A DNA stretch of 64,000 nucleotides from Heptranchias perlo (Eukaryota). Below are positions 1,174-62,915 of this stretch, one piece after another (within the stretch, counting starts at the first letter, position 1; each line of letters opens with the position of its first letter). A program made the position numbers and the translations under genes. The stretch is taken from NCBI RefSeq assembly GCF_035084215.1, contig NC_090337.1, positions 27,528,001 to 27,592,000 of the forward strand, read 5' to 3'. The notes beneath the pieces were generated by a model. The model saw only the letters and a list, made by a program, of their open reading frames with translations, was not told the origin of the DNA and ran no database searches.

Positions 1174-1313
1174 TTAAATAGCTTCATATCCTTCAGGTCT
1201 CTGTCTTCGATCAATTGTATACATAATAATCACGGTTAGGACCAATCCTGTCAAAGCGATTCCCACTAATATTGGAATTACTTTACTCTCAGCATCCGCT
1301 TCACATTTTCCCT
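1174..1313 (-). CDS. LAMP3: LAMP-family gene exon 6 (EGKCEADAESKVIPILVGIALTGLVLTVIIMYTIDRRQRPEGYEAI-stop): fourth LAMP Cys, TM helix, GYxxPhi lysosomal signal
   Basis: cttgtag acceptor at 1314-1316, TAA at 1174-1176; C-x-x-D, IPI-x-VG-x-AL TM and terminal GYEAI. The six exons sum to 1047 nt = 348 aa + stop. Symbol (vs CD68) rests on 6-exon mucin+LAMP layout and adjacency to an MCF2L-family gene. Confidence 0.93.
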
Positions 1314-4094
1314 CTACAAGCAGAGTCAAAGGTCAGCCGTTAACTTTTAGGATAAGGAATAAAGTCAATTTTAGTTAGTTATGCAGAGTCTGGAAATATT
1401 AAAAGAATGCAAAGCAAGAAAATGGTTTTACTCTACCATTAATACATGCAACGAACTACCCATTTGCTACAACAGCAAAGTATAACATTCAGAAACATCT
1501 TGATTACATATGCTCATAAAGGCTGAAAATACCAAAAACTACACATCAAGTGTGGTACATGTTCATACAAGAACAGCATGCAGAGCCAAGTCTTAGCTTC
1601 AGTTTAATCATTTGCAAGTGACAGCTTTTACCCTGATTAAATTGTGATGAAAAAGAATTTATGTGCAATACTTTAAACCCAAAATGAAGTAGCCTTTTGA
1701 GTTAAATATTTTTCTAAAGAAACTGATTCTATAACTGAACAGATAGGAATGCAATTACTAAAACACTTGATTTCTCCACCCCGCACCGACTCCTAAACAA
1801 GTCAGCAATCTCAAATGTACTTCTAATCCACACTTTTTAAAGTGGGGGTTAGAAGTACATTTGAAATTGTTAACTTATTTAGGGAGTGGGGGAATTCAAC
1901 AGGGTGTTTCAGCATTTTAGTATTTGTACTCCCATCTGCCTTGTCATAGAATCTGTGCACTTATCTTTAGGAAAATATCTGAAACTCAGTTACAAAAATG
2001 TAAAAAAAGCAAACTACCCCAATTGTCTCAGTTTTCCAGAGTCATACATTTAAGACAGCGAAGTGTGCATGAACAATTGAAGTATCTACCCCCCCCCCCC
2101 CAATGTCAATTTTGAAGCAGTCACTAGGAAAGGCACCTCCCTCCCTATAAAAAGAAAACAACCGGCCATCATTCAATCCCTCCCAACAAGGCAAATATCG
2201 AACACCGATGCAAATTTGCATTCAAACATTGTGCAGCACTATGTTGAAGCTCTGAAATAATACAGCAATATAAAAAAAAGTGGACAGTGGAAAGATTAGA
2301 TTTTGGCCTTTGGGAAGGGAGAAAAAATAGCAGCTTGGCTCAATTTAAAATTATTAAATATCACCGAGGGAATATGAATTAAGTGACTCAGGACAGTCTG
2401 TCAAGGTACTTACAGTATTTGTCCTCACTATTCAGTTTAAAGGACAGACCCCAGTAAACATTCAAAAGCCCAGTTATGTTTTGTGTCACTAATCATGGAG
2501 CTTTTCTTCCAAAGAAAAGTTGGTTGTAGCACCATATACATCATTACAAGTCTCATTCAAATTGGAAGTCTGGGCACCATGGTTAAGTATTGTGAGCCTT
2601 CAGCAGTAGTTAGTAGACACAGGGCATTGCAACAAAGACAGTTACCTTCGGGTTGAATAACCCCAGGCAATTAATCAAAGCTTGTGTTCAGGCATGGTAA
2701 AAATCTTTAAAATATGTCTAGAATATACAGTTAATGGTACATCTTGCAAAAGTATTAAGAGCAATTTTTAAACTGGATACTTGAAAGAAAAAATTAGTGT
2801 CACCACATTTGAAAACAAGGAGGTGCTGAGCCAAGGCTAAGGTGACCTGACATCTCCAACACAGACCACCTTATCTGCTACATGAACCAGCTGCCTGGAA
2901 ACATTTAAGTGATTTTTTTTCTACATTCTTCTAAAAAAATAGTATGGATACCCCATTTCTCCATCTTACATTCCCTTAATGTTGCCTGCAAATCTTCATT
3001 AAGTCTTTAAAATGTCACTTCAATTAGCCATCAAGAGGTATGCAAACGCAGAATGTGGTAATTCCCCCACCAATTGCTCCTCCCACCAGGAGCTGCCTCG
3101 CCTCAACTGGGCTGTCCCCTCTCCCAAGACATATCTAGATCAGGAACTTATCCATTAAGACTGTAGCCAGGAACTGTATCCAGGACATTTCCTCAAACAA
3201 CTTTAAAAGGGGCAAGAGAAAAAAAAACACCCTGGGCATGTTCTGTGGTTAGGTACAAGCCTTATATAGTGTTATATTTCCCTTTATAGTTAAAGTAATA
3301 TTTATTGCATTGATTAACTTACAAAGCGATTGCCCTCATGTTTGAATTAGACAATTTTAACCCTATCTGCCTGGCGAGAACTGGGCAGTTCAAATCAGCT
3401 GGGTGACCTACCCGCAGACGTTCTGCGGTGATCCTGCTGTTTTGTTTTAAGAAAAACGCCAACTTGAAGCTGGCAGTCCATTTTTAAAATATGCAGATTG
3501 GAGACCAATGACCTCATTGGACCTTGACTGCAATTTTAAGCAGCCTGAGTAGGGAAACTGTTGTGGAAAAGGATAGAGAGCCAGAAGCGGCATGTTTAAA
3601 AAAAGCCAGGAGTGTTCCTTTGGGCCCTACAAGGGACATTTAGACATCCCAAGAAACACCCCCTTTCCTTTTTCCCCTCCTGTAAGACCCTTCAAAAACC
3701 CCTTCCCTACCAATTACCTTGTTGTTGGCACCAATGGAATGGTTGCCAGCCAGAGCCTCCCTACCACCCTTAAAGCCCCCACACTCAATTCCCTCTCCCA
3801 GTTTAAAAAAAAGTGTTTACAACTAATAGTGAATGGATTATAAAGATGAAATCTTAGGACGGTGGTTTTATGAGAAATCCAGGGATAGCAATAGATACAT
3901 GGTCTTATATTACCAATCCACTGGAGCTCAACAGCCTTCAATTCTACAGTTTCTTTCACGCAAGAGATAGCTGACAGACTAGTTATTCTAGATTATCCTG
4001 GGGAGGAAATTGGTTTGCAAAAGAAGGGGTAATACAAGTTCAAGAATTTTTCAAAACTATTTCCTGCCTTGTGAAATTATAGCAGAACTTTTAT

Positions 4095-4210
4095 GATTCT
4101 ATGGACCAAGTTGTGGAAAGTGGATTAGGCACGAGAGCTCTTTCACCCAGCACAGACACAATGGGCTGATTGACCACCTTCTGTGCTGTAAATTTCTAAT
4201 GATTCTATGA
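4095..4210 (+). mobile_element. CR1/HE1-type 3' end
   Basis: ccttctgtgctgtaaatttcta..gattctatga tail; ends 6 nt from the LAMP exon 5 donor. Confidence 0.7.
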
Positions 4211-4222
4211 AAAGAACCTTAC

Positions 4223-4396
4223 CTTTACCAAACTTTCCACCTGGAATGTCAAATGCCTGGAGTTGCGTATCAACAATCAGAATCTGTAATGAATTAGGTG
4301 ACAAAGCCACAACCTGCTTGCTCTTGCACCTGTAGGCATGCCCAAGTGTAGTCGTAAACAGCTTCACATTCTTCACCATGCCATGATAGTAAGATC
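4223..4396 (-). CDS. LAMP3: LAMP-family gene exon 5 (GSYYHGMVKNVKLFTTTLGHAYRCKSKQVVALSPNSLQILIVDTQLQAFDIPGGKFGK)
   Basis: ttttacag acceptor, gtaagg donor, 174 nt phase 1->1; LG.(S/A)Y.C and QLQAF....FG are canonical LAMP motifs. Confidence 0.93.
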
Positions 4397-4435
4397 CTGT
4401 AAAAGCAAAAAAAAGGCCCAGAAACACAATGATGG

Positions 4436-4665
4436 CATGAACTTGCCTAGGAACAGGAGTAGGCCATTTAGTCCCTCAAGCCTGTTTAGCTATGATCTCA
4501 TTTAATGGCAGATCTGTGACCTAGCCCCATATCCCTTAGATTTTTGTTAACCAAAGGTATTATCAATCTCCAATTTTAAACTAACAATTGAGCTAGCATC
4601 AACTGCCGTTTGTGGAAGAGCCTTCCAAACTTCTCCCATCCTGTGTGTGTAGAAGTGTTCCCTAA
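4436..4665 (-). mobile_element. CR1 LINE 3' fragment
   Basis: ggaacaggagtaggccatt terminus; HFYTHRMGEVWKALP (FFTQRVV..WN.LP motif). Confidence 0.8.
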
Positions 4666-5099
4666 CTTGCTCAGCATAGGCAGCAGTAAATTTGCCCTCA
4701 GTGGAACTACCACTGCTTAAAGTCCAGGTCTTTTCCACCATTATAATGTTTGAATAGAAAAATGTTTAGCTGTGTATAGCAGATTTTTCTCCCTAGAAAA
4801 TTGGGTGCAGTGTTAAGTGAAACTGGTAGCGTCCACTTGATCATTTACCCAATATTGAAAAAAATTGACTGGAAAATAAAGAACAAAATAAAAAGGAAAT
4901 GGTTGACAGTCTCCTCATTTTATTTCTTCCCCTTCAAGCTCCAACAATACTAAGTTTTTAAAAGACATTTCAAAAGTGGGGGGGGGGGTGGGGAAGAAAA
5001 AGAACACTGGATGGGAGGTAAAACACTATATAGTATTGCTGATATTATGCAACCTGTCAAAATCTGGAATTGAAAACTTATGTTTAATAGGCCCTCTCC

Positions 5100-5820
5100 C
5101 TCAGGGTATTAAAACAATGGGTGAGGAAATTGCAGATGCACTAAAATCATAATTTTCCAAAGCTCTCTAGATTCAGGAATTGTGCCTTTGGATTGGAAAA
5201 CTGCAAACATCACTCCATTATTTAAAAAGAGGAAGGAGGGAGAAACGAGATAACTACAGACCTGTTTTAACATCAGTTGTGGGGAAGTTATTGGTATTGA
5301 TCAGACAGCGACTGAGCACTTGAACAATGAGTTGATCAAAGCAAGTAGCATGGATTTGTGGAGTAGGTTATGTCTGACTAATCTAGTTGATTTTTTTGGA
5401 GGAGGTGGTCACTATGGTAGCGAATAGGGGAGTATCTATGGATGTTGTCCATATGGACTTCCAGAAGATATTTGGTGAATTTATACGATTTCACACAAGC
5501 GATTAGCAAAAATGAAGGCACACAGAATCAGAGGTAACCTTGTGACATGGGTCAGTAATTGGTTGGGAGGTAGGAAACAAAATGTATGGACAAAGGGAAT
5601 GTTCTGATTGGCAGGATGTGTCAAGTGGTGTTCACCAAGGATCTGTACTGGAGCCTCAGCTTTTCACTACATAGATCAATGTCTTGGATGAAAGATTAGA
5701 AAAAATGAGTTATATCTCAAAGTTTGAAGATACTAAGTGTGGAGGCAAAAGTTATGTAGAAGAAAATGCAAGCATACAAAAATCAGTTTATATGAATGGA
5801 TTTTGCTATAGACTGAGTTC
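5100..5820 (+). mobile_element. Degraded CR1 LINE reverse-transcriptase fragment
   Basis: Remnants of DWK.AN.TPLFKK, DFQK.F and SGV.QGSVL with frameshifts. Confidence 0.8.
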
Positions 5821-6167
5821 AGTTCCCAGTTAGAATTACATGCTATACAACGCAATATTCAAATACCTTCTCTAATTTAACCTCAACCTCTATCGGTCAG
5901 ACTAAATTCAGGGAAAGTATTCTAGAGAATAAAAATAATTGACAGGATGTGATCAGCATATGTTGCTATTTAAGTTTTACAAACAGGAAGAATGAAATTT
6001 TTCACATATGAATGTAATCACATAAGGTAATGATTATCATACAGCTGGACAAAGTCCAGTCAATTTATACACAGCTCAGATCAAGAGATCATTTTATGAA
6101 CTACATTAAGTACTAAAATCTAATTTCAAATATATTGTTAGCTTTTACAGTATTAATTATAAGTTAC

Positions 6168-6228
6168 CCAAGTTATTCATTGATCGCAGAGCAACACTTA
6201 TCTCACTGATGTAATACTGGTTTCCATC
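6168..6228 (-). CDS. LAMP3: LAMP-family gene exon 4 (DGNQYYISEISVALRSMNNL-G)
   Basis: ttttacttgcag acceptor, gtaact donor, 61 nt phase 0->1; YYISE(V/I) motif as in LAMP3. Confidence 0.88.
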
Positions 6229-8689
6229 CTGCAAGTAAAAGGTAGGATTAGTTATTTGAAGGAACACAACAGTCATCCACAAGTTTAAAAAAAACTCAGC
6301 ACAAGAGTCTCTACATGCATGGGGGAAAAAAATGCTATTTAGAACTACTCCCCTACAAGTCAGTCCTCTTGGTGGGATGAAGGCCCAACGGATCCAGAAA
6401 AGGTGATATCCGGTATTCATTAACTACACAGGCTTTCTTAAGCATATGATATGTGCATACACAATTGGTTATGGTTGGAGCGCCTAGGCATGCAATGGAA
6501 GGGAGAGAGAGGGAGGGAGGTCCTGCCTTATTGGCATCCATGTTTCAGAAGACCTGGGTTAAAGCAGTTGGTGCCATACAAGTTCAGTTCACAACAAAAG
6601 ACTTGTCAGTCTAGAAAAATCAAAAGAGGTAGCTGATGGATCACATGCTGTCCTGTGTAGGCCCTTAGCTAGAGAGCAGACAAGGTTGCTGAAGGTATTA
6701 CCTGGATACCACTATGCAAATACAGACATGCAAAGTTCAATCCTACCTTGCTTAGATTGTAGAACGGCACTGCAGTTACTGCTGAAGCTCTGACCTTGAA
6801 CTAGTGGAATAATAATTGATGGGGTATGCACTGTGTACCCAAGCTGAGGTCAGAAAGATGGGCAGATTTGTAGTGAGTTGTGCAGCTGAGTTTTTGATAC
6901 ATTACTCACTTAACAGGGGTTCAAACTAACAGTGGAACAGTGACTTGAGGGTGGAAGAGAAAGCAGGTGGTATGAGAAAGAAAGGAGGGTCTCTGGTCCA
7001 AACTCCCATCATCAGCCATATCATCTGAGCCAGAGTGGAATTATGTGGCAAACCAAAGAAAGTTGGTATTCACAGGATGTACTCTGTTTGGCAAACAGAG
7101 CCAATTCATTGGTGGTCACCTTGCAATGTCCATTCCTTATAGTTTGTGCTGGTGGGATCAATTGTAGACTTCATGCCTCCCTTCCAGACCCCATGGATAT
7201 AGTCGCCAGATTGGAGAGAGAGGAGTGGGGATAAAGAGCTAACCACCAGGTGAGTGGATCTGCATCACAAAAAAACCCTCAACAGAACATCAAGTAAACA
7301 ATAAACTCCATTTATCCTGCTGGGCAGGAGCTTGAAACAATTCCCAACCCAGGAGGTGCTGTAAGTTTTCCAGTGAGCTGCATATAGTACAAATCCACAT
7401 TTAAGTGTCCACTTTAAAACCCAGTTAAGATCATTAGAACCAGTGGTAACCCACATCCTTCTCCCAGAATATGATGTGATCCAACACACACTCTCTCTTT
7501 CCTCCCCCAAGAAAGATACAACTTTTGCCAATGATCACATTTCATACACTGAAAAAACAGCTTTTCAAACAAGGGTCCCTGGATATCCACAATGATCAGG
7601 AGATTGAATTCCAAAAAGGTTTCACACTTAATTTAACAATTAATCCTTTGCCATTTTGAACAGTTCACAAGACCATTAGACAGCATCGAAACCAAAAGGT
7701 GCAATTAAAGTCACTGGTGGGGATATTTGGAAAGCAACACAAAAGGAAACATTGTGGATAACATGTCACATGATCTTAAAGGGGCCAAGGGCAATTTGGG
7801 TCCTATTTTACTGGCCCTCTTGCCAAACTGTTCCTCCTCTTCTCCTCCTCCAGAACTCCCTTCTCAATGAGACTTCCCTACATTCCTAAACCACTGGTGC
7901 AGTAGCTCATCTGTGGATAGGCTGAGGCACATTGATGCTCCCTGTACTTGGCACTTCCATTTAGGGTTTACAGCAAAATGTAATTCAGAAAGGGTACAGG
8001 CACTGTGCCTAAAAAGAGACAGTTTTATTCCCCAGCACTAAAATCTTTCATTCTGATGAGCACAAAGAAACCAAACTGTCACTAGTTGGCTGGTACAAAA
8101 TTGGCTCAAGGTGGTCACACAAAAAGATCAATTTGTCCTGGTGTTGATCCTGACATATACCACAGTTTTTACATCAATGTAATTCAACTTTCATGCTACA
8201 CTGATGCAAGCTAGCATAACTGGATCTGAGACAACATGACAAGTCTTCAGAATGCTGAAAAAGTAGGGTATGCATTAATTGATCACAGCATTACAGGATG
8301 TGAAAAGAATATAAGTCTACTGTTAAGACAGATTAGAACACTCCTATCTTTCCTGTCCTTTTCTTTCTCTTTCTCCAGCCCCCCCCCCCCCAACTTAGTA
8401 ATTCAAAGATACAGCAATCAGTTCCTTTAAAAAGATCCCGCAAAAATATCTTGTTCAGAATAAAAAGTGATAAGACTCTGCAATACAATAATTTGTTCTG
8501 CTGGAACCATGAAAAATGTGGAATGCAGATGTAATGCTTACAGCAACACCCTGAATTATTGTGAGGGATGGAGGGAAAAAATTAGTCATCTAGGTCAAGA
8601 GTGCACAACTGCATGGTTTAGCTGGTCCTTTTAAAAAAATTCTCAATGCACCTTTGACTAGGATATTTCTTTGTAACCCCCTCACCATC

Positions 8690-8990
8690 TAACTTAGGCT
8701 GAGGGAGTGCTGCACTGGCACAGGTGCTGTCTTTCAGATGAGATCCCATGGCACTATTTGAAGAGCAGCAGGGGAGTTCTCCTGGTGTCTTGGCCAACAT
8801 TTATCCTTCAACCAAACAAATTATCTGGTTATTTCTCATTGCTGTTTGCAGGACCTTGCTGTGTGCAAATTGGCTGCTGTATTTCCCTACATTACAACAG
8901 TGACCACATGTCAAAAGTACTTTTGCTGTGAAGTGATTTGGCACTGCTGGAGGTAGTGAAAAGGTGCTATATTAATGCAAGTTCTATCTT
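8690..8990 (+). mobile_element. Deu-domain SINE (SacSINE1-like)
   Basis: gatcccatggcactattt...ctcattgctgtttgcaggaccttgctgtgtgcaaattggctgc...ggtgctatattaatgcaagtt tail. Confidence 0.7.
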
Positions 8991-9456
8991 TAGCACAGAT
9001 CTCAACACATTTTAAAAGTAGCTTTAAACAGAACATGTTGATAACCTATTTTGCACCAACAGCTTTAGTGGCTAATAAATCTTTTGGATAACGACGTGTG
9101 GGTTTTCAAAATTTTATTTTAGAAAAGCTCCATAGTTATTCAAACATTTTATTAAGCCAGTTGCCTTGAGTTCAACTCAATGAATGAAGTTTTTACTAAT
9201 CTGTCACAATCTACTTTATTTCAAAACCATTGTACAAGACAGGAAGTGTGCTACTTTTCAGGGTGTCATGTTGCCCAAATGTATATGCATCAAACTTTAG
9301 TAGCATCCTTTTTCCTACATAAATTCATTGTGGGCCACAGATTCACCCCTCCTGCTCCATGAAATCAACTGAAGCTGTGGTTATCTATGCCTACTCTGGA
9401 AGATAAGTATGAGAGAGTCATAGTGAGGTTATGATTGGCTGTGTACATTAACTCAC

Positions 9457-9573
9457 CTTCACAAAGGTGAAGTTTACAAATCCTGAATTAAATTTTAAGA
9501 TAATCCAGGAGGCAACATTTCCACATTTCCCTGAAGCCACTGTCTCTGCTAGTGGAACATTGAAGTACATATC
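9457..9573 (-). CDS. LAMP3: LAMP-family gene exon 3 (DMYFNVPLAETVASGKCGNVASWIILKFNSGFVNFTFVK)
   Basis: ttttcacag acceptor, gtgagt donor, 117 nt phase 0->0; YFN..ASG.C..L.F..G...FTF.K is a LAMP domain signature. Confidence 0.92.
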
Positions 9574-11053
9574 CTGTGAAAAGAGAGCATTGTTAATAAA
9601 TATATTGATGATCCCTACTTAGCATTGTTTCAGGTTTCAGCAGCTTTTTGCTCTCAAATGAAACATTCTACATATTAATATTTGAACTGATTAAAAATAA
9701 TGCAGTGCAGCACCATTAAAAGCTTGCCATCTTAAAAATTGAAAAAGCTGCATAAGGTATGCAACAGCTAACTATAGGAAATTCTTAAAAAAGGTCAATG
9801 TTTGATTAGAATGAGACTTAAATTGCTCCATAGCCACTGGCTCCACAGCATGGGACTGGTGATCTAAAACAAATCTGGACAAATTTAGGGGATGTCATGT
9901 CACCTCAGATTAATTGCACATTAGCTTCATAGTGATGTCATGACATCAAAAAAAATTGCACCACATGCATTGTAGCCAAAATATTACTGCAGAGAATGTT
10001 AGCCAATTGCCCATTACAAAATAAATGCTAAAGAATGGCTCATCAGCTCACTCTCCAAGACCTAGGCTGAAATGCAAGAGCAGCCAGTCAAAAGATAGAC
10101 ACATCAGGTTTATGCTCTAGAGCTGAATCAAAACCTCAAATTGTATAATTTGATGAAGATTTTCCTCTATGTCTGCGCTCAGTGAGGTAGCAAAATGAGT
10201 ACTATGTTCACAGTAGGGTGCAAACTTCATTAGGAATGACAATTTCACCAATCTTCTTGCCAGGGAAAGTGCAGTCAGACTTCTAGCATATCTTGCAAGA
10301 ATCTAATGGGTTGTTATTGCCACATGACTGAAGCAGTCACAGATAATACATTGCTATTCTAAGTTCAATAAGGCTTATCTTTTGAACAAAACAAACATGG
10401 GTAGGCTTGAAATTGTAAAACCAAGGAAAGTGCCTACACCATATATTTCATCTTTTAAGTATTAAATTTTAAGTTTCAACTCATTTAAACCATTATTCAT
10501 GCACAGCATGTTTTGGAACCTGCAATCAGGGAAGCTTTTCAATTTGGATTTTTATGGCATAAGTACATCATTCAAAAGAAACAGAAAATACAGGAGCACA
10601 TCTGAGAGGACATTTATTTTTTTTTAAAAAATAAAATGCTCAAAAATATGCACTAGAACACATTGCATCTGAAAATCTAGTCAATGTGAAGAGACCCTCC
10701 AAACAAACAATTGGAGGATATTTACATTTGAGTTGGGGGTGTGGCTAGTTTTGTGGACCATGGGTTTGAAATACAGCCATAAAAGACTGAAGAGTTGGGA
10801 GTATTGTAATTACATGCGCAACTCACTCACACCCAAAATGCCACAATATTTTAAGCCACGTAATTGGTTTGCACCCAGGTTACACAGGCTGGGTGCAAAT
10901 GTGGAGGAAATTCCAGGCCTGGGGAAGGAGGATTGGGCCTACCTGCAATATCACCACACCCCATCCATAACCAACATTATTTGCTCTATGTGTAAAAAAA
11001 CTCCTTCCAACTTCTGTGATAGAGAGAATGGAAGCTGAAAGAATAAAACTTAC

Positions 11054-11568
11054 TTTTCCATTTTGTTTGATAATAAGCTGTATTCCAATTGCTGCCTTGA
11101 TGCAAGTAGTGTTCTTGATAGAAACATTGTAGTGTCCAGTTTTTGGCAGTGAACAATTGGGTGATAAGGTAGGGAGCACCGTTGTCAGCGTATGCATGGT
11201 TGTTGTATGATTTGTGGTAGTCATGTTGGTCACATGTGCAGTCGTTGGACGTGTGGTCGTCAAGTTGGTCACATGTGCAGTCGTTGTAGGACGTGTGGTC
11301 GTCAAGTTGGTCACATGTGCAGTCGTTGTAGGACGTGTGGCCGTCGTGGCAGTCGTTGTAGGACGTGTGGTAGTCGTGGCCGTCGTGGTAGGACGTGTGG
11401 TAGTCGTGGCAGTCACATGTGCAGTCGTTGTAGGACGTGTGGTAGTCGTGGCAGTCACATGTGCAGTCGTTGTAGGACGTGTGGTAGTCGTGGCAATCAT
11501 TGCAACTAGATTGGGAGCATCTGCTGATGCAACACCTTCTGCTGAAACGGCATAACTTGTATACAAGC
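11054..11568 (-). CDS. LAMP3: LAMP-family gene exon 2 (Thr-rich mucin-like region plus start of LAMP domain ..PKTGHYNVSIKNTTCIKAAIGIQLIIKQNGK)
   Basis: ttttacag acceptor at 11569-11571, gtaagt donor at 11048-11053; 515 nt, phase 1->0; G-x-Y-x-V...TCI-x-A-x-x-G-x-QL is the typical LAMP domain N-terminus. Confidence 0.9.
11215..11497 (-). repeat. Coding minisatellite (42-bp and 30-bp units; ATTTTRPTTTAHVT / ATTTTRPTTT / NLTTTRPTTTAHVT)
   Basis: About 7-8 near-identical units containing ggacgtgtgg inside LAMP exon 2. Confidence 0.95.
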
Positions 11569-11644
11569 CTGTAAAAGAAAACAAGAACAGTTAACCAAAT
11601 GCTATAGACCACTTTGAACAAAGTGGTTGTATTTTTAAGAAAGT

Positions 11645-15252: not shown

Positions 15253-15354
15253 TCCAAAAGCTTGTGAATTTAAAATAAAATTGCTGGACTATAACTTGGT
15301 GTTGTAAAATTGTTTACAATTGTCAACCCCAGTCCATCACCGGCATCTCCACAT
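15253..15354 (+). mobile_element. Penelope-like element terminal fragment
   Basis: aaagcttgtgaatttaaaataaaattgctggactataacttggtgttg... flanked by 12-bp TSD cttaactggccc. Confidence 0.75.
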
Positions 15355-15529
15355 CTTAACTGGCCCAGCATGTTTATGTAAACAGATTCATCCCCATTAG
15401 AAACAGCTTGAGTTGATTGAGGTTCAAGAATCCCAAATTAAGTCAGGTTATAAGGATTGACTGCAAACCCCTGAACTAACTCTTGTAAGGAATTACATTC
15501 AAGCATTTAATTACTTTACTCAAGTACAG

Positions 15530-15870: not shown

Positions 15871-16245
15871 CTACAACAAATTTAAAGTAGTAAAAAAAGG
15901 ACTATTAAACAAAAAAGGAAAAACCTAAATGCTGGGGACCACGCTAAAACTAATTGTGGTTTTTCACACTCTGACGGATCGGCAGTCCATCGCCAACATT
16001 TTCCGGATTCTACTTCGATTAGTAGGAAAAAGCTAATCGCGTTAACCAGTTAACTCAAACTTCAGGTCAGAACTCAGTTACGAGTTACTGACAAGGAGCC
16101 ACTGAAATAGACAGGAATCAGCGAATTTCACTTAGTAATCAATTCACCTAGCAACGCTAAAGAAATGCAATTTTTCTATAATCTATTACTCAAAATATAA
16201 GGTTAACAATAATATTTTTGGCATCTGTATTTGACAACACCGGGA

Positions 16246-16276
16246 CTATAACTTGGTGTTGTAAAATTGTTTACAA
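16246..16276 (+). mobile_element. Ultra-short Penelope-like terminal insertion
   Basis: Identical to part of the 15253 copy; 15-bp TSD ttgacaacaccggga (16231-16245, 16277-16291). Confidence 0.75.
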
Positions 16277-16374
16277 TTGACAACACCGGGATTCACCCAC
16301 TTTACCCGGAAGTCACAACTAAAACTTTTATTTTCAGTAAGAACTAGAAATTTAGAAAGTTCAAACCGACTTAC

Positions 16375-39389: not shown

Positions 39390-39502
39390 CACTGTCCCTC
39401 TTCTCCCTCTTGCAATACCTCAACCACTTCGCCATTCTGCACTGAAAGTTCCTCAATGGATTTAGTTTCATAAATGCCTTCTACTCGGAACAGACTTTGA
39501 GT
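39390..39502 (-). CDS. MCF2L2: MCF2L-family exon, SH3 N-terminal half (TQSLFRVEGIYETKSIEELSVQNGEVVEVLQEGEEGQW)
   Basis: catttcag acceptor, gtgagt donor, 113 nt phase 0->2; EL.V..G.VVE..QEG.EG.W matches the MCF2L SH3. Confidence 0.9.
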
Positions 39503-40857
39503 CTGAAATGAAGAAATGTGCAAAGTGTAAACAGGCGACAAGAATCCAAACTGCAGAATGAAGAGTTACAAAAATAATGTATAATATGAAAATAGACTGA
39601 AATTTTGAAAATATTTACATAGGTTATTCAGTGCTACAACAGGAAATATGGTTAATTACTTCCTCAAGTCAGGTTTGCTGGACAATTCACAAGCAACAAA
39701 GTGATAAGTGACATGTGTATAGCCTTAAGAATGGAAATAAAACAAGTTATTTGATGGAGTGCCATCTACTATCATGTTTATAATGTTTTGTGGCTCAAAA
39801 AATCACAATCAAAAGTTTTCTTTTAACAATTTGTTTATAAATCATCTATTGTGACATTGCAACTGTAGAAATATGTAAACTATTTTTACATTTGCCATTA
39901 AATATTTCCAAAGTTGCAAGCCCATATCAGTGTGACAAGTAGTAATTAACCTTTTAGATCTAGGGCTCTGGTTGGCCAGTGGTTAAAATTTTATCTCGAT
40001 TTGCTAAACATTGGTATAAGGTGAGTCACTTTTCATTAGCAGAAGTTATAACTCACATGCTGGAATACACTATTTTGTTCTTTTGGACTCATGAGTGCTT
40101 GAATGTGCTATGATGGGCATACTACTGAACAACCCTTCATATTACACATGGCATAATGCTGTATAGGCAGTGCTTAATGATTTAAGTAGCCAGTTAACTG
40201 GTATATTTAGTACATGGGCTTTATATTTAACTGTTACTGGATTAAATGTATGGAGGAGTTAGTGGAAAGCATGGTTTAACGACAAGGCTTTGGAGCCCAT
40301 CCTCAGGGCATCATTAAACATCCAAAATTAATCCTTAGCACAGATATTTATCCACCCACGATAAACAGTGGCTAAAGCAGGTATGGGAAAAATAACTGCG
40401 TGGGTCAATACAATGTCACATACTCAACAGGCATGGGATGAAGTAAAAAAAAAATGTTTGACCTGAAGAAAGTTGCAATGAATATTAATGTGACTGACAA
40501 GCATTGGCATGTAGAACTTTTCAATTGAAGCCCTAAAGCAGAAATTAACAAATGGTGTTTTTTATAAGAAAAAGATTAGTGAAGACAAATGTAGGTCCCT
40601 TACAGTCAGAAATGGAAGAATTTATAATGGGGAACAAGGAAATGGCAGAGCAATTAAACAAATACTTTGGTTCTGTCTTCACGGAAGAGGGCACAAATAA
40701 CTTCCCAGAAATGCTAGGGAACCAAGGGACTAGTGAGAATGAGGAATTAAAGGAAATTAGTATTAGTAAAAAAATAGGGCTGGAGAAATTAATGGGACTG
40801 AAAGCCGATAAATCCCCAGGACCTGATAATCTGCATCCCAGAGTACTAAAAGAGGTA

Positions 40858-41033
40858 ATTGTAAACAATTTTACAACACCAAGTTATAGTCCAGCAATTT
40901 TATTTTAAATTCACAAGCTTTCGGAGGCTACCTCCTTCCTCAGGTGAACGATGTGGAAATGAAGCAGGTTCATCGTTCACCTGAGGAAGGAGGTAGCCTC
41001 CGAAAGCTTGTGAATTTAAAATAAAATTGCTGG
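40858..41033. mobile_element. Penelope-like terminus with inverted duplication and hammerhead motif, inserted in CR1
   Basis: 13-bp TSD actaaaagaggta (40845-40857, 41034-41046); 67-bp perfect inverted repeat. Confidence 0.8.
40976..41014 (+). ncRNA. Minimal type I hammerhead ribozyme motif (mirror copy on minus strand at 40910-40948)
   Basis: UUCAC-CUGAGGA-A-GGAGG(UAG)CCUCC-GAAA-GC-U-U-GUGAA: helix I UUCAC/GUGAA, both core boxes, 5-bp helix II, palindromic AGCU helix III. Confidence 0.7.
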
Positions 41034-43289
41034 ACTAAAAGAGGTAGCCATGGAAATAGTGGATGCATTAGTTGTCATCTTCCAAAACTCTACAGATTAT
41101 GGAAGAGTTCCTGCATATTGGAGGGTGGCAAATGTAACCCCACTATTTAAAAAAGGAGGGAGAGAGAAAACAGGGAACTACAGACTGGTTAGCCTAACAT
41201 CCGTAGTAGGGAAAATGCTAGAGTCTATTATAAAGGATGTGACAACAGGACACTTAGAAAATATCAACGAGATTAGACAAAGTTAACATGGATTTATGAA
41301 AGGGAAATCATGTTTCACAAACCTGCTGGAGTTTTTTGAGGATGTAACTGGTAGAATAGATAAGGGAGAACCAGTGGATGTGGTTTATTTGGATTTTCAG
41401 AAGGCCTTTGATAAAGTCCCACATAAGAGGTTAGTGTGCAAAATTAAAGCACATGGGATTGGGGTAACATACTGGCATTGATTGAAAATTGGTTAACAGA
41501 CAGCAAACAGAGAGTAGGAATAAACGGTCTTTTTCGGGGTGGCAGACAATGACTAGTGGGGTACTGCAGGGATCAGTGCTTGGGCCCCAGCTATTCACAA
41601 TATATATCAATGATTTGGATGAGGGAACCAAATGTAATATTTCCAAGTTTGCTGATGAAACAAAATTAGGTTGGATCGTGAGTTGTGAGGAGGATGCAAA
41701 GAGGCTTCAACGCGATTTAGACAAGTTGAGTGAGTGGGGAAATACATGTCAAATGCAGAATAAAGTGGATAAATGTGAAGTCATCCACTTCTGAAGAAAA
41801 AACAGAAAGGCAGAGTATTATTTAAATGGTGATAGATTGGGGAATGTTGATGTACAAAGGGACCTGGGTGTCCTTGTACACCAGTCACTGAAAGCAAACA
41901 TGCAGGTACAGCCAGCAGTTAGGAAGGCAAATGGTATGTCAGCCTTCATTGCAAAAGGATTTGAGTACAGGAGCAAGGATGTCGTACTGCAGTTATACAG
42001 GGCCTTGGTGAGACCACACCTGGAGTATTATGTGCAGTTTTGGTCTCCTTACCTAAGAAAGGACATACTTGCCATCGAGGGAGTGCAGCGAAGGTTCACC
42101 AGACTGATTCCTGGGATGGCAGAACTGTCGTATGAGGAGAGATTGGGTCGATTCGGCCTGTACTCACTTGAGTTTAGAAGAATGAGAGGGGATTTCATTG
42201 AAACATATAAAATTCTGACAGGGCTAGACAGACTGGATGCAAGGAGGATGTTTCCCCTTGCTGGGGGGTCCAGAACGAGGGGTCAGAGTCTCAGGATATG
42301 GGGTAGGATATTTATGACTGAGATGAGGAGAAATTTCTTCACTCAGAGGGTGGTGAACCTGTGGAATTCTCTACCACAGAAGGCTGTGAAGGCCAAGTCA
42401 CTGAATATATTTAAGAAGGAGCTAGATAGATTTCTAGACACAAAAGGCATCTGGGGGTATAGGGAGAGAGCGGGAATATGGTATTGAGATAGAGGATCAG
42501 CCATGATCATATCGAAGGGCCGAATGGCCTACTCCTGTTCCTATTTTCTATGTTTCTATGTAAGAACGCAAAGGAATTTCATTATGCAGATTATTGTGCA
42601 GTGATACTGCGATCTGTAGAAGGAGTGTTCAAAAGCACACAGCTAACCAAAGGGATTTGTTTCTAAAATATGGAAGCAAGAGCTGGCAATGTCATTTTAA
42701 GCTGAAACACCCTGAAAGTGCTGTTAGTATATTAATGCGAACCTTCTTTCACTGTACATGATGTCAAAAGCACTGTTAACAATACACAATGTTTTTCTCC
42801 TTTCAAGCAAAAATGGCATTCAATTGCTGTGAACAAATGTGGACAGGGGGTGGGACCAGCCAAACTATGGAGCTTACTGCCTTTGATGTGGCCATAATGA
42901 AGGTCATAGACCAAGACACCCAGGAGGCACGGGACTGACAAAGCAGGAGGATGCATCAGGAGTCCAGGTTAGAACTATAATACGAACTTGTCATTACTGG
43001 AACATCATCTAGCAAGCACATATCAACACCACAGATTACAGCATGCCACAATATGGATTGCTGAGATAATGCACTCAAAGTGTCGCTTATTTTCTTTCCA
43101 CAGAATTGCAAAAAAGGTCAGAAGCTGAGCCCAGACCCTCCCAGCAAACCCCCGTAGCACAGCGCTCTCCGGCAACAACACTCCTAGAAGGCATCAGGTC
43201 AGGAACAAAAACCTAGACTGTAAAACTTCAAAGGTAGACGAAGGAATATAGTATGGCGGGTGGATCAAAGGAAACAAGGGTAAATGCCA

Positions 43290-43981: not shown

Positions 43982-44097
43982 AGTTTTACTAGATATTTCT
44001 TCATCCATATCTGAGTTGGAAAATTCATCCATACTTGAAGGAATAGTTTCAAAATCCTCGGAAGTGTCCAATGATGGGATAGGTTTACATGACCAAC
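43982..44097 (-). CDS. MCF2L2: MCF2L-family exon (G-WSCKPIPSLDTSEDFETIPSSMDEFSNSDMDEEISSKT)
   Basis: ttgcag acceptor, gtaagc donor, 116 nt phase 1->0; resembles MCF2L GWSKTSHSLEAPED..SS..E..NSSD.EE acidic linker. Confidence 0.85.
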
Positions 44098-49726: not shown

Positions 49727-50806
49727 CTATAAATCTGTCAAGGTGACTTGAATGATTTTGGCTCTCAGCTCTCTAGCAGCACAAACCACTGCACCTGCTT
49801 TATATTCTTCATGGGTGTGGGCTTTGATGTCATTGACCTCTCTGGCATCCTCCTGGACATCTACCATCAGTCCTTTCTGGACAGTAAATTTATGGAACAC
49901 ACAACATGCTACCACAATTTGCAAAATGGTTGTTGACACATACTACAGCACACTCCTGAACCTATCCAGGCACCAGAACCTACCTTTAAGCGTCCAAATG
50001 GCTTGCTCAATTCTAATTTTTGCTATACTGGGTGCTTCATTGTAGTGCCTCTCTGCAGCACTGGTTCTCCTATGAAGTAGCATCATGAGCCATGGGAGCA
50101 CCTTGTCACCTAGTAGTCATCCTGCCCCTTGTCTCTGCTGTTGATATGGAGCTGGGACTCTAAACCAGCAAAGTATTAAAGTATCATGACAGCTCCCTGC
50201 ATATGATGAATTAACGGGCAAGAAGCTGTGCCAATGGTCGTAAATGACTAACATTTAGAGTATTATATCTTTTGTGGTTGATGTAAATATAGCAGTTTAC
50301 ATTTGAGGCATGCAATGCTATATATGTGCAATCAATAGCCTTCACAAACCTGAAGAATCCGGTGATTCTAAAAACATTTATTGCCCTCTCTCTCATCTGG
50401 GACTACTGTTGAAGTGTATAAATTGAGCTGCCCTGGCAAAGATAGTATTGGTGATTTGCCTTATACCTGAATGTACACCGAATTGGCTGATCTGGCAAAT
50501 AATCCCTCTGTCTCCTTGGAATAAGCATGTAGATTAGATGTTCAGAACTGTGGTCACTTTCTCTGCCACAGACAGAGCTGTCCACTTGACGGACCTTGTT
50601 TACATATTTGGCTTCAGTAGCGAACAGAGTTCCGTGACTGAGGTAAATCTTCCTGAGGCAGAGCTGACGAGAGAGATCTTTGAATGGGTCAATACATCCT
50701 GCTCGATGGTTACCACTGAGATGGTTTGGTTCTTTTCTGGGGCTACCTGATCAACTTGGCTTTTCGTATGGACTAATAAATGAGGAATTCCCATTGGGAA
50801 GCCCAT
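49727..50806 (-). pseudogene. Decayed Harbinger DDE transposase (HARBI1-like)
   Basis: Frame-shifted motifs VTELCSLL..ALSVAEKVTTVLN, GF...VKAIDCTYIAL..YINHKRYNTLNV, IEQAIWTLKGRFWCLDR, IVVACCVFH. Confidence 0.85.
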
Positions 50807-54685: not shown

Positions 54686-54818
54686 GCTACAGGCAACTCT
54701 TACATGGCCATGGCACACAATGAAATGAAGAGCTTCACCCGAAATAAGAACATACAAGCTCTTTTGTTCAGCAAACTACATTGCAGCATGCACTTTCCCA
54801 CATCAAATGCAGCTGTAC

Positions 54819-54893
54819 CTTCAAACCCCAGTGGAGTTGGGTCACTCTTTATTTCATATCTCTTAGCTTTAACATCTAGGCCAGAAAGTGATC
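54819..54893 (-). CDS. MCF2L2: MCF2L-family exon (G-SLSGLDVKAKRYEIKSDPTPLGFE-G)
   Basis: caacag acceptor, AG/gtacag donor, 75 nt phase 1->1; KAKRxExKSDPTPxG matches the MCF2L KAKRHEVKSDPTPFG motif (recalled). Confidence 0.85.
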
Positions 54894-60724: not shown

Positions 60725-62915
60725 CATAGAATCATAGAAGGTTACAGCACAGAAGGAGGCCGTTCAGCCCATCGAGTCCGTGCCAGCTGTATGCATGAGC
60801 AATCCAGCTAGTCCCACTGCCCTGCCCTATCCCCATAGCCCTACACATTTTTTCGTTTCAAGTATTTATACAGTTCCTTTTGAAGGCCATGATAGAATCT
60901 GCCTCCACCAGTCCCTCGAACAGTGCATTCCAAACCCTAATCACTCGCTGTGTAAAAAAGTTTTTCCTTGTGTCACCTTTGGTTCTTTTGCCAAACACCT
61001 TAAATCTATGTCCTCTGGTTCTTGACCCTCCCACCAATGGGAGCAGTTTCTCTCTATGTACTCTGTCTAGACCCTTCATGATTTTGAACACCTCTATCAA
61101 ATCTCCTCTCAACCTTCTCTGTTCCAAAGAGAACAATCCCAGCTCCTCCAGTCTATCCACATAATTTAAGTCCCTTATCCCCGGAATCATTCTAGTAAAT
61201 CTCCTCTGCACCTTCTTTAAAGCCTTCACATCCTTCCTATAATGCGGTGCCCAGAACTGGACACAATACTCCAGTTGTGGCCGAATCAGTGCTTTATAAA
61301 GGTTCATCATGACTTCCTTGCTTTTGTACTCTATGCCTCTATTGATAAAGCCCAGGATCCTGTATGCTTTTTTAACGGCTTTCTCAACCTGCCCTGCCAC
61401 CTTCAATGATTTGTGTACGTAAACCCCCAAATCTCTCTATTCCTGTACCCCTTTTGGAATTGTGCCCTTTAGTTTATATTGCCTCTACTCATTTTTCTTA
61501 TCGAAATGCATCACCTCGCATTTTTCCACATTAAACTTCATCTGCCACTTGTCCGCCCATGCCACCAATATGTCTATATCCTCTTGAAGTCTATCACTAT
61601 CCTCCTCACTGTTGATTACACTTCCAAGTTTTGTGTCATCTGCAAATTTTGAAATTGTGCCCTGTACACCCAAGTCCAAGTCATTAATGTATATCAAGAA
61701 AAGCAGTGGTCCCAGCACCGACCCCTGGGGAACACCATTGTACACCTCCCTCCAGTCCGATAAACAACCATTCACCACTACTCTCTGTTTCCTGAATTTA
61801 GCCAATTCTGTATCCATGTTGCTATTGCCCCTTTTATTCCATAGGCTGCAATCTTAATAGCAAGCCTACCATGTGGCACTTTTTCAAATGCTTTTTGAAA
61901 ATCCATATACACCACATCAACTGCATTGCCCTCATCTACCCTCCCTGTTACCTCATCAAAAAACTCTATCAAGTTGGTTAAACACGATTTGGCTTTCCCT
62001 AATCAATCCACACTCATCCAAGTGACTGTTAATTCTGTCCCGGATTATCGTTTCCAAAAGTTTCCCCACCACTGAGGTTAAACTGACTGGCCTATCATTG
62101 CTGGGTTTATCTTTACACCCTTTTTTGAACAAAGGTGTAACATTTGCAATTCTCCAGTCCTCTGGCACCACTCCCGTATCTAAGGATGTCTGGAAGATTA
62201 TGGCCAGTGCCTCCGCAATTTCCCCCCTTACTTCCCTCAGCATCCTCAGGTGCATCCCATCTGGAGCAGCTGACTTATCTACTTTAAGTACAGCTAGCCT
62301 TTCCAGTACCTCTTCTTTCTCAATTTTTAGTCCATGTAGTATCTTAACTATATCTTCCTTTATAGAGACTCTGGCAGCATCTTCTTCCTTGGTAAAGACC
62401 GATGCAAAGTACTCATTTAGTAGCTCAGCCATGCCCACTACCTCCATGAGTAGATCTCCTTTATGGTCCCTAATCGGCCCCACCCCTCCTCTTATTACCC
62501 GTTTACTGTTAACATGTCTGTAGAAGACTTTTGGATTCCCTTTTATGTTGGCCGCTAGTCTATTCTCATACTCTCTCTTAGCCCCTCTTATTTCCTTTTT
62601 CACTTCCCCTCTGAACTTTCTGTATTCTGCCTGGTTCTCACTTGTGCTATCAACCTGACACCTATCATATGCCACTTTTTTTCCGCTTCTTCTCATTCTC
62701 TATCTCCTTTGTCATCCAAGGAGCTCTGGCTTTAGTTGCCCTACCTTCCTCTCTCGTTGGAATGTACCTTGTCTGTACCTGAATCATCTCCTCTTTAAAG
62801 GCCGCCCACTGTTCAATTACAGTTTTGCCTGCCAATCTATGATTCCAATTTACCCGGGCCAGATCTGTTCTCATCCCACTGAAATTGGCCCTCCTCCAAT
62901 TGACTATTTTTACTC
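60725..62915 (-). mobile_element. 5'-truncated CR1 LINE (ORF2 pseudogene)
   Basis: ORFs 60858-62874 with DFQKAF, GVPQGSVLGPLLF.IYINDL, KFADDTK, FFTQRV; catagaatcatagaa tail. Confidence 0.95.

Follow-up and report, generated by a model that had tools for sequence, protein, structure and literature searches.

The 176-bp insert studied here, in the window (the whole 64-kb stretch of DNA analysed), is best read as a single insertion of two short head-to-head ends, each bearing a ribozyme, of a Penelope-like retrotransposon (PLE). Both nicked target strands would each have primed a cDNA on uncut element RNA, presumably at the junction between the pseudo-LTR (pLTR) and the ORF, ∼100–140 nt downstream from a pile-up of family 5′ ends. 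The two cDNAs would likely have run off near the 5′ end of the RNA and been joined in the middle, giving a head-to-head pair whose arms both appear to derive from the same source element. We consider this scheme (one insertion, two cDNAs primed from both nicks on uncut RNA, joined near the RNA 5′ end) probable. The locus is an ordinary dead-end insertion. The original prediction, made from the letters of the window, correctly recognised it as Penelope-like: its terminus is identical to the pLTR end of the parent element.

Anatomy of the insert

The insert had been described as 176 bp within a 13-bp target-site duplication, with exact 67-bp inverted arms around a 17-nt loop. We located both copies of the duplication (ACTAAAAGAGGTA), separated by 176 nt, and the arms (40887–40953 and 40971–41037) are reverse complements at 67/67 positions (Table 1). 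The fold computed for the insert has an energy of −130.5 kcal/mol (z −21), and 0/200 shuffles were equally stable. The loop holds as the spacing between the exact arms, but 11 of its 17 bases are element sequence: the minus copy is present verbatim over 107 nt in a full element (L201), so that the true filler is only 6 nt, likely a short re-copy of the arm. The 3′ end of the minus arm is the tail-less end point of the family (TTTACAAT). On its 5′ side the minus arm extends to 16 nt upstream of helix I of the ribozyme, overshooting the modal 5′ stop of the family (the wall) by 4 nt. The plus arm begins 5 nt upstream of helix I and ends 29 nt short of the usual end, its last 4 nt being common to the target duplication; ends as early as this were found in 3/100 sampled family copies. 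The copy is slightly atypical for its family, in that the tail is absent and the plus arm stops early.

Table 1. Coordinates of the insert and adjoining features in the window.
Feature	Position	Strand	Basis
SH3-type exon of host gene, downstream of insertion	39390..39502	-	SH3_9 E 3.6e-4, below curated cut-off; splice limits
Decayed CR1-type LINE fragment, host of insert, antisense to host gene	40549..42487, limits approximate	+	RVT_1 match
Left target-site duplication, 13 bp	40845..40857	.	Sequence match to right copy
Minus-strand arm, 107 nt of pLTR end	40858..40964	-	Identical to L201:897-1003
Minimal type I hammerhead motif, predicted cut after 40915	40910..40948	-	Descriptor match
Base matching putative +1 of element RNA, A of TCATTTC	40960..40960	-	5′-end pile-up in two subfamilies
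6-nt junction filler CAGGTT	40965..40970	.	Absent from native upstream sequence
Plus-strand arm, 67 nt, without tail	40971..41037	+	Reverse complement of minus arm
Minimal type I hammerhead motif, predicted cut after 41009	40976..41014	+	Descriptor match, helix covariation
Right target-site duplication, 13 bp	41034..41046	.	Sequence match to left copy

The insert was also said to split a CR1 reverse transcriptase (RT) within an intron of a minus-strand gene, and both statements hold. The LINE fragment carries an RVT_1 Pfam match at 41486–41791, and with the insert and one duplicate deleted its frame is open across the site, with stops further along. The CR1 label is presumed, Pfam itself showing RVT_1. 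PH and SH3 exons flank the insertion, the PH-domain exons lying on the minus strand 31–35 kb past the right end of the window. We take these exons to belong to one Dbl-family RhoGEF gene of the MCF2/MCF2L type; the Dbl-homology exon candidate gave no RhoGEF Pfam match.

Paired ribozymes and their parent element

A minimal-hammerhead descriptor found two sites in the 64-kb window, one per arm, and none in 30 shuffles, which bears out the prediction of a hammerhead on each strand; its cleavage position after U41009 is correctly placed as the predicted cut. The curated models that had been suggested as a check did not agree: no Rfam hammerhead family matched within 40500–41400, where all seven matches at E ≤10 were sub-threshold and the best of them were to generic hairpin (microRNA) models. 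The plus-strand motif comprises helix I (UUCAC/GUGAA), CUGAGGA, an extra A, helix II (GGAGG/CCUCC), GAAA and a palindromic AAGCUU. Across variants the core keeps the CUGAnGA and GAAA boxes, the extra base 9/10.1 and the palindromic 15.2–16.2, and only N7 varies recurrently. We scored compensatory changes in 16 variants hand-picked from 47, with junction-clipped variants and most singletons excluded. In these, 96.3% of the helix cells were paired (29–54% in slid controls), and double changes occurred in two pairs, one in helix I and one in helix II. The compensatory changes uphold the predicted minimal type I hammerhead; as the variants are closely related and 4/10 pairs are invariant, the covariation gives modest backing.

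The zero-loop helix III and the extra A had been called unusual variants, but both define the class: the published description of PLE minimal hammerheads lists an extra base at 9/10.1 and a palindromic 15.2–16.2 among its traits (PMC4209133). Metazoan PLE hammerheads share with ours the 4–5 bp helix I, the extra base, G10.1–C11.1 and the palindrome, and lack helix III, whereas helix II has 5 bp here versus 7–8 bp in the Schistosoma families (PMC4209133). Dual motifs on opposite strands, 100–700 bp apart, are described in the same source.

Could either ribozyme of the insert fold? Reaching the ribozyme conformation was computed to cost +61 to +68 kcal/mol in the insert, nascent RNA included, and +1.4 in the native 5′ context, in agreement with the proposed self-silenced hairpin. 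It had been suggested that cleavage might precede synthesis of the second arm. However, the head-to-head geometry puts the antisense arm upstream of the ribozyme on both strands, which leaves no co-transcriptional escape. In the host pre-mRNA the antisense arm is likewise transcribed first, and the ribozyme is therefore predicted to be trapped in the 67-bp duplex. Judging from the modelled folds, this copy most likely has no ribozyme activity and could serve at most as an editing substrate.

A genome search with the arm had been proposed as a route to a full element with RT and GIY-YIG domains, and it led to one. L201 has a pLTR-ORF-pLTR structure and contains the 107-nt terminus of the insert verbatim; in its frame, 9 aa of the RT are deleted. 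In L114 the RT-endonuclease frame of 902 aa is unbroken, with the same ribozyme at its end, and L063 also has a 902-aa frame. A sister subfamily at L061 consists of 3,081-bp tandem units with a 902-aa frame (RVT_1 E 2.5e-10). Direct pseudo-LTRs from partial tandems are thus present in both L201 and L061. The parent frame carries the RT motifs DKG and YIDD and, at its C-terminus, a GIY-YIG pattern (VVY-x-YIG, two Cys between the boxes, later H, H, E, N). Pfam returned no endonuclease match in the parent frame, and the putative endonuclease is assigned from motifs as described in PMC8557442. That paper assigns a CX2-5CxxC linker finger and two Cys between the GIY-YIG boxes to Neptune and Nematis. 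A CX4CxxC linker finger, the feature that points to the Neptune or Nematis clade, is present in L201 (CRGNLCKTC) and L061 (CHGNLCKTC), and one of its Cys is altered in L114. A single-sequence structure prediction of the endonuclease region gave a pLDDT of 33, and a PDB sequence search gave no match. A protein search gave 11 hits, and all 9 named relatives among them are from sharks.

Judged by sequence identity, the family whose end forms the arms is Penelope-like and young, and full identity with the parent over 107 nt implies that the window copy is very young. Pieces of the element's endonuclease region also occur in annotated shark host isoforms of XRCC5, septin 5a, a NOXP20-like and a PPP1R12A-like protein (P0003, P0005, P0007 and P0009); these are exon capture or annotation error.

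The family is abundant. Searching the 3.25-Gb genome for exact matches gave 43,253 sites for a 34-mer of the arm and 5,781 for the intact ribozyme (39 nt). Of the first 100 ribozyme matches listed, 38 belong to head-to-head pairs in which two intact ribozymes lie no more than 45 nt apart (counted by hand; one pair is a duplicate). The hairpin, whose rarity had been implied, is thus a common product of the family, and extrapolation from 19 pairs in 100 matches leads us to expect ∼1,100 double-ribozyme hairpins genome-wide. The sampled loci were taken in genomic order and all lie within the first 35 Mb of a single contig. Among 56 distinct short pairs, 53 have a tail on one end, 2 have none and 1 has tails on both ends; the target duplication is 12–13 bp in 46 and 11–15 bp in 53. 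An inverted 5′ copy with a 30–40 bp tail on one end is typical of the family, while the window copy is inverted but tail-less. The head-to-head layout itself is already published for PLEs (PMC3846280, PMC8557442, PMC2377424). The window holds two further stubs of the family, both on the plus strand. One (15253–15356) is solo, starts within helix II and has a tail and a 12-bp duplication; the other (16243–16278) is ∼36 nt long, with a duplication of ∼13–15 bp, and the ribozyme is absent.

The 5′ ends of the arms and the origin of the pair

We scored where family copies stop on their 5′ side. In subfamily B (n=100), 66 copies end ≤12 nt from helix I (25 of them at 11–12 nt), 4 end at 13–57 nt and 30 are longer. 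Genome-wide, 605 of the 2,720 copies that reach the modal base stop exactly there. Counting from the first T of TATAAAT, this base is number 30, the A in TCATTTC; from the consensus motifs, we take TCATTTC to be an initiator and TATAAAT a TATA box of the pLTR. In subfamily A (n=100), 22 copies end at 5–6 nt from helix I and 2 at 11–12 nt, and the TATA box is 6–7 nt nearer helix I than in B. Both peaks therefore fall at TATA+30/31, yet their distance from helix I is 12 nt in B and 5 nt in A (Fisher p 4e-7, duplicated loci kept in). Subfamily A has additional end points at 10–14 and 15–38 nt (19/100), several at self-complementary words.

These ends could also mark a stall of the RT just past the folded ribozyme instead of the RNA 5′ end, as both walls lie within 5–12 nt of helix I and a cap signature is missing: a cap-derived extra G was seen in 0/7 unselected solo copies. 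A count of 46/100 copies with a G was discarded as cap evidence, because the opposite arm supplies a G in head-to-head junctions. We regard a stall as doubtful, because the distance to helix I shifts from 12 to 5 nt between subfamilies whereas the TATA distance stays at 30–31, so that the wall tracks the promoter motif and not the ribozyme. From the position of the motifs, the 5′-end pile-up is likely the transcription start of the element RNA. A pile-up at the ribozyme cut site, suggested by a small cluster in 33 inspected copies, was not upheld genome-wide: such starts make up ∼0.4% of copies, with 166 genome matches versus 132 one base upstream. With point changes removed, cut-site starts were about twice as frequent as those one base upstream (26/30 vs 16/30 loci), and this ∼2-fold excess may reflect some cleaved templates. 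The small number of cut-site starts is in line with the uncleaved RNA template seen in vitro (PMC11167929). The word CCACATC occurs twice in L201, at 904–910, just past the putative RNA start, and at 1031–1037, the tail end before the ATG.

We wondered whether the two arms come from one strand or two. A single strand, cDNA or antisense RNA, might fold back and copy itself into the second arm, and self-priming on an antisense template has indeed been proposed (PMC3846280). In line with this, the helix II variant is identical in both arms of 49/53 pairs, versus ∼28% by random pairing (the sample being enriched for two variants), and a high inter-arm match fits one arm copying the other. The window copy taken alone is compatible with fold-back, too: it has no tail, and its minus arm contains the whole of the plus arm and overshoots the wall. 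The family as a whole behaves differently. Among 55 pairs the split is symmetric: the arm without the tail extends beyond the other on the 5′ side by 3 nt or more in 17, and the tailed arm does so in 16; 19 are equal and 3 have no single tail. In 17/55 pairs each arm thus has sequence that the other lacks, so that neither can copy the other, and fold-back is excluded for these non-nested pairs. Moreover, three pairs differ at a subfamily site, and in 20 of the first 100 matches listed the centres are spacer-less, overlapping by 2 nt, with no room for a loop. Fold-back is, overall, unlikely. The arm matching, together with a variant of 0.24% frequency that the two arms share in 8 of the insertions represented in the first 100 matches listed, points instead to one source element as the usual origin of both arms. 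Taken together, the arm ends argue for two cDNAs, one per nick, that would be joined by short matches or filler.

The palindrome might instead be a mobile mini-element, retrozyme- or MITE-like, copied whole or from a 131-nt RNA circle. Some junctions do recur (a 50-nt gap in several pairs), and CCACATC is found both at the end of the tail and ahead of helix I. However, most junctions are unlike one another, and a given junction can have the tail on one arm or on the other, which makes this idea very unlikely. A 131-nt circle or retrozyme template was rejected as the main route: there are 0 genomic tail-to-ribozyme junctions, and the sequence is native 3′ UTR. That the copy has a host function, for example in controlling the RhoGEF-type gene through a ribozyme switch or as a source of small RNA, strikes us as extremely improbable. 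The copy is an intronic, perfect duplex and the family shows a hint of editing on both strands (see below), but its identity to the parent makes it very young, it sits in a dead LINE and many similar hairpins are expected in the genome.

At L011, L194 and L214 the last 7–12 nt of an arm are briefly re-copied, which looks like template-end realignment and repeat addition and is notable for a telomerase-related RT. In L308, L273 and L258 the palindromes have no spacer, and their centres fall on self-complementary words of the element, the ribozyme's own AAGCTT included.

Relation to known elements and a hint of editing

The insertions resemble published PLE insertions with an inverted pLTR (PMC3846280, PMC8557442, PMC2377424) in the head-to-head 5′-truncated copy, the 30–40 bp tail on one end, the short target duplication, the partial tandems and the TATA and initiator-like motif of the pLTR, but here the arms are cut to ∼100 nt, the window copy is tail-less and the family ends at TATA+30. 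For inverted copies these papers propose antisense self-priming or endonuclease resolution, and the origin of inverted and tandem PLE structures is called undefined in PMC8557442. The shark family gives a clue: with tens of thousands of near-identical copies, this young family offers genomic read-outs that separate the models, namely the point at which the cDNA stops (TATA+30, not the ribozyme cut) and whether an arm is a copy of the other (not so in 17/55). A search of open main texts found no paper that links the point of inversion in PLEs with the site where transcription begins, or that reports this shark family, although Repbase and literature beyond these texts may cover shark families.

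Counterparts of the proposed steps exist in vitro: the purified protein of Poseidon PAc from Anolis nicks and extends both strands, uses two internal start sites that define the tail, and accepts uncleaved RNA (PMC11167929). In Poseidon PAc the ribozyme overlaps the ORF start (PMC11167929), whereas here the ATG is downstream of the ribozyme and marks the end of the tail; the linker zinc finger of our parent is lacking in Poseidon. Non-LTR retrozymes (bioRxiv 10.64898/2026.07.22.740005) likewise have a type I hammerhead and are pLTR-derived and non-coding, but they form head-to-tail tandem arrays while the insert is head-to-head. A tail-to-ribozyme array junction, the mark of a retrozyme, had 0 genomic matches for this variant.

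Two other systems offer parallels. In LINE-1 twin priming, an inversion arises from two primers at a staggered cut, and in retroviruses a short run-off cDNA, the minus-strand strong-stop DNA, results from priming close to the 5′ end. The element belongs to neither group, and unlike in these systems both arms cover the same RNA stretch and there is no tRNA primer. A broader proposal, whose chances we judge to be evenly balanced, is that the hairpins are a Penelope strong-stop-like product: the strands of a staggered cut would prime near the 5′ end of a capped, uncut mRNA, and both cDNAs would run off at the transcription start and join. Hairpin centres would then map the promoter, and thousands of intronic hairpins would form an Alu-like dsRNA pool edited on both strands.

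Editing was assessed in contigs from three runs of one sample, which we guess to be RNA and which carry no starts, strand or level. In these, A>G at L201:977 makes up 3.6–8.1% and T>C at L201:988 makes up 2.1–4.6% of the summed contig depth. In the genome, the exact variants number 36 (0.06%) for A>G and 155 (0.24%) for T>C versus 65,207 unchanged. Relative to the genome, the two A-to-G-type changes are thus enriched 9- to 150-fold in the presumed-RNA contigs, which hints at family-level editing of both strands, with the qualification that contig depth is not read count and that older subfamilies are over-represented. The A-to-I editing suggested in the original prediction therefore has a hint in its favour that bears on the family and not on the copy itself. 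Over the window's own arms no A-to-G-type change reached 10% in the contigs. If the hint holds, the hairpins would be a large source of dsRNA in shark transcripts. No host-gene exon joints were seen in the same contigs over the window. A joint skipping the insert was considered as a polymorphism and dismissed, since it comes from other CR1 copies.

The minus strand of the window carries several other features. Candidate host-gene exons at 43990–44097 and 54756–54893 have splice sites and an open frame, without Pfam support. A LAMP-family gene (1177–11590) has luminal and transmembrane exons that match Pfam and a long open frame at 10883–11590. A remnant at 49946–50406 weakly matches DDE_Tnp_4, and RVT_1 marks a second LINE fragment at 60861–62699.
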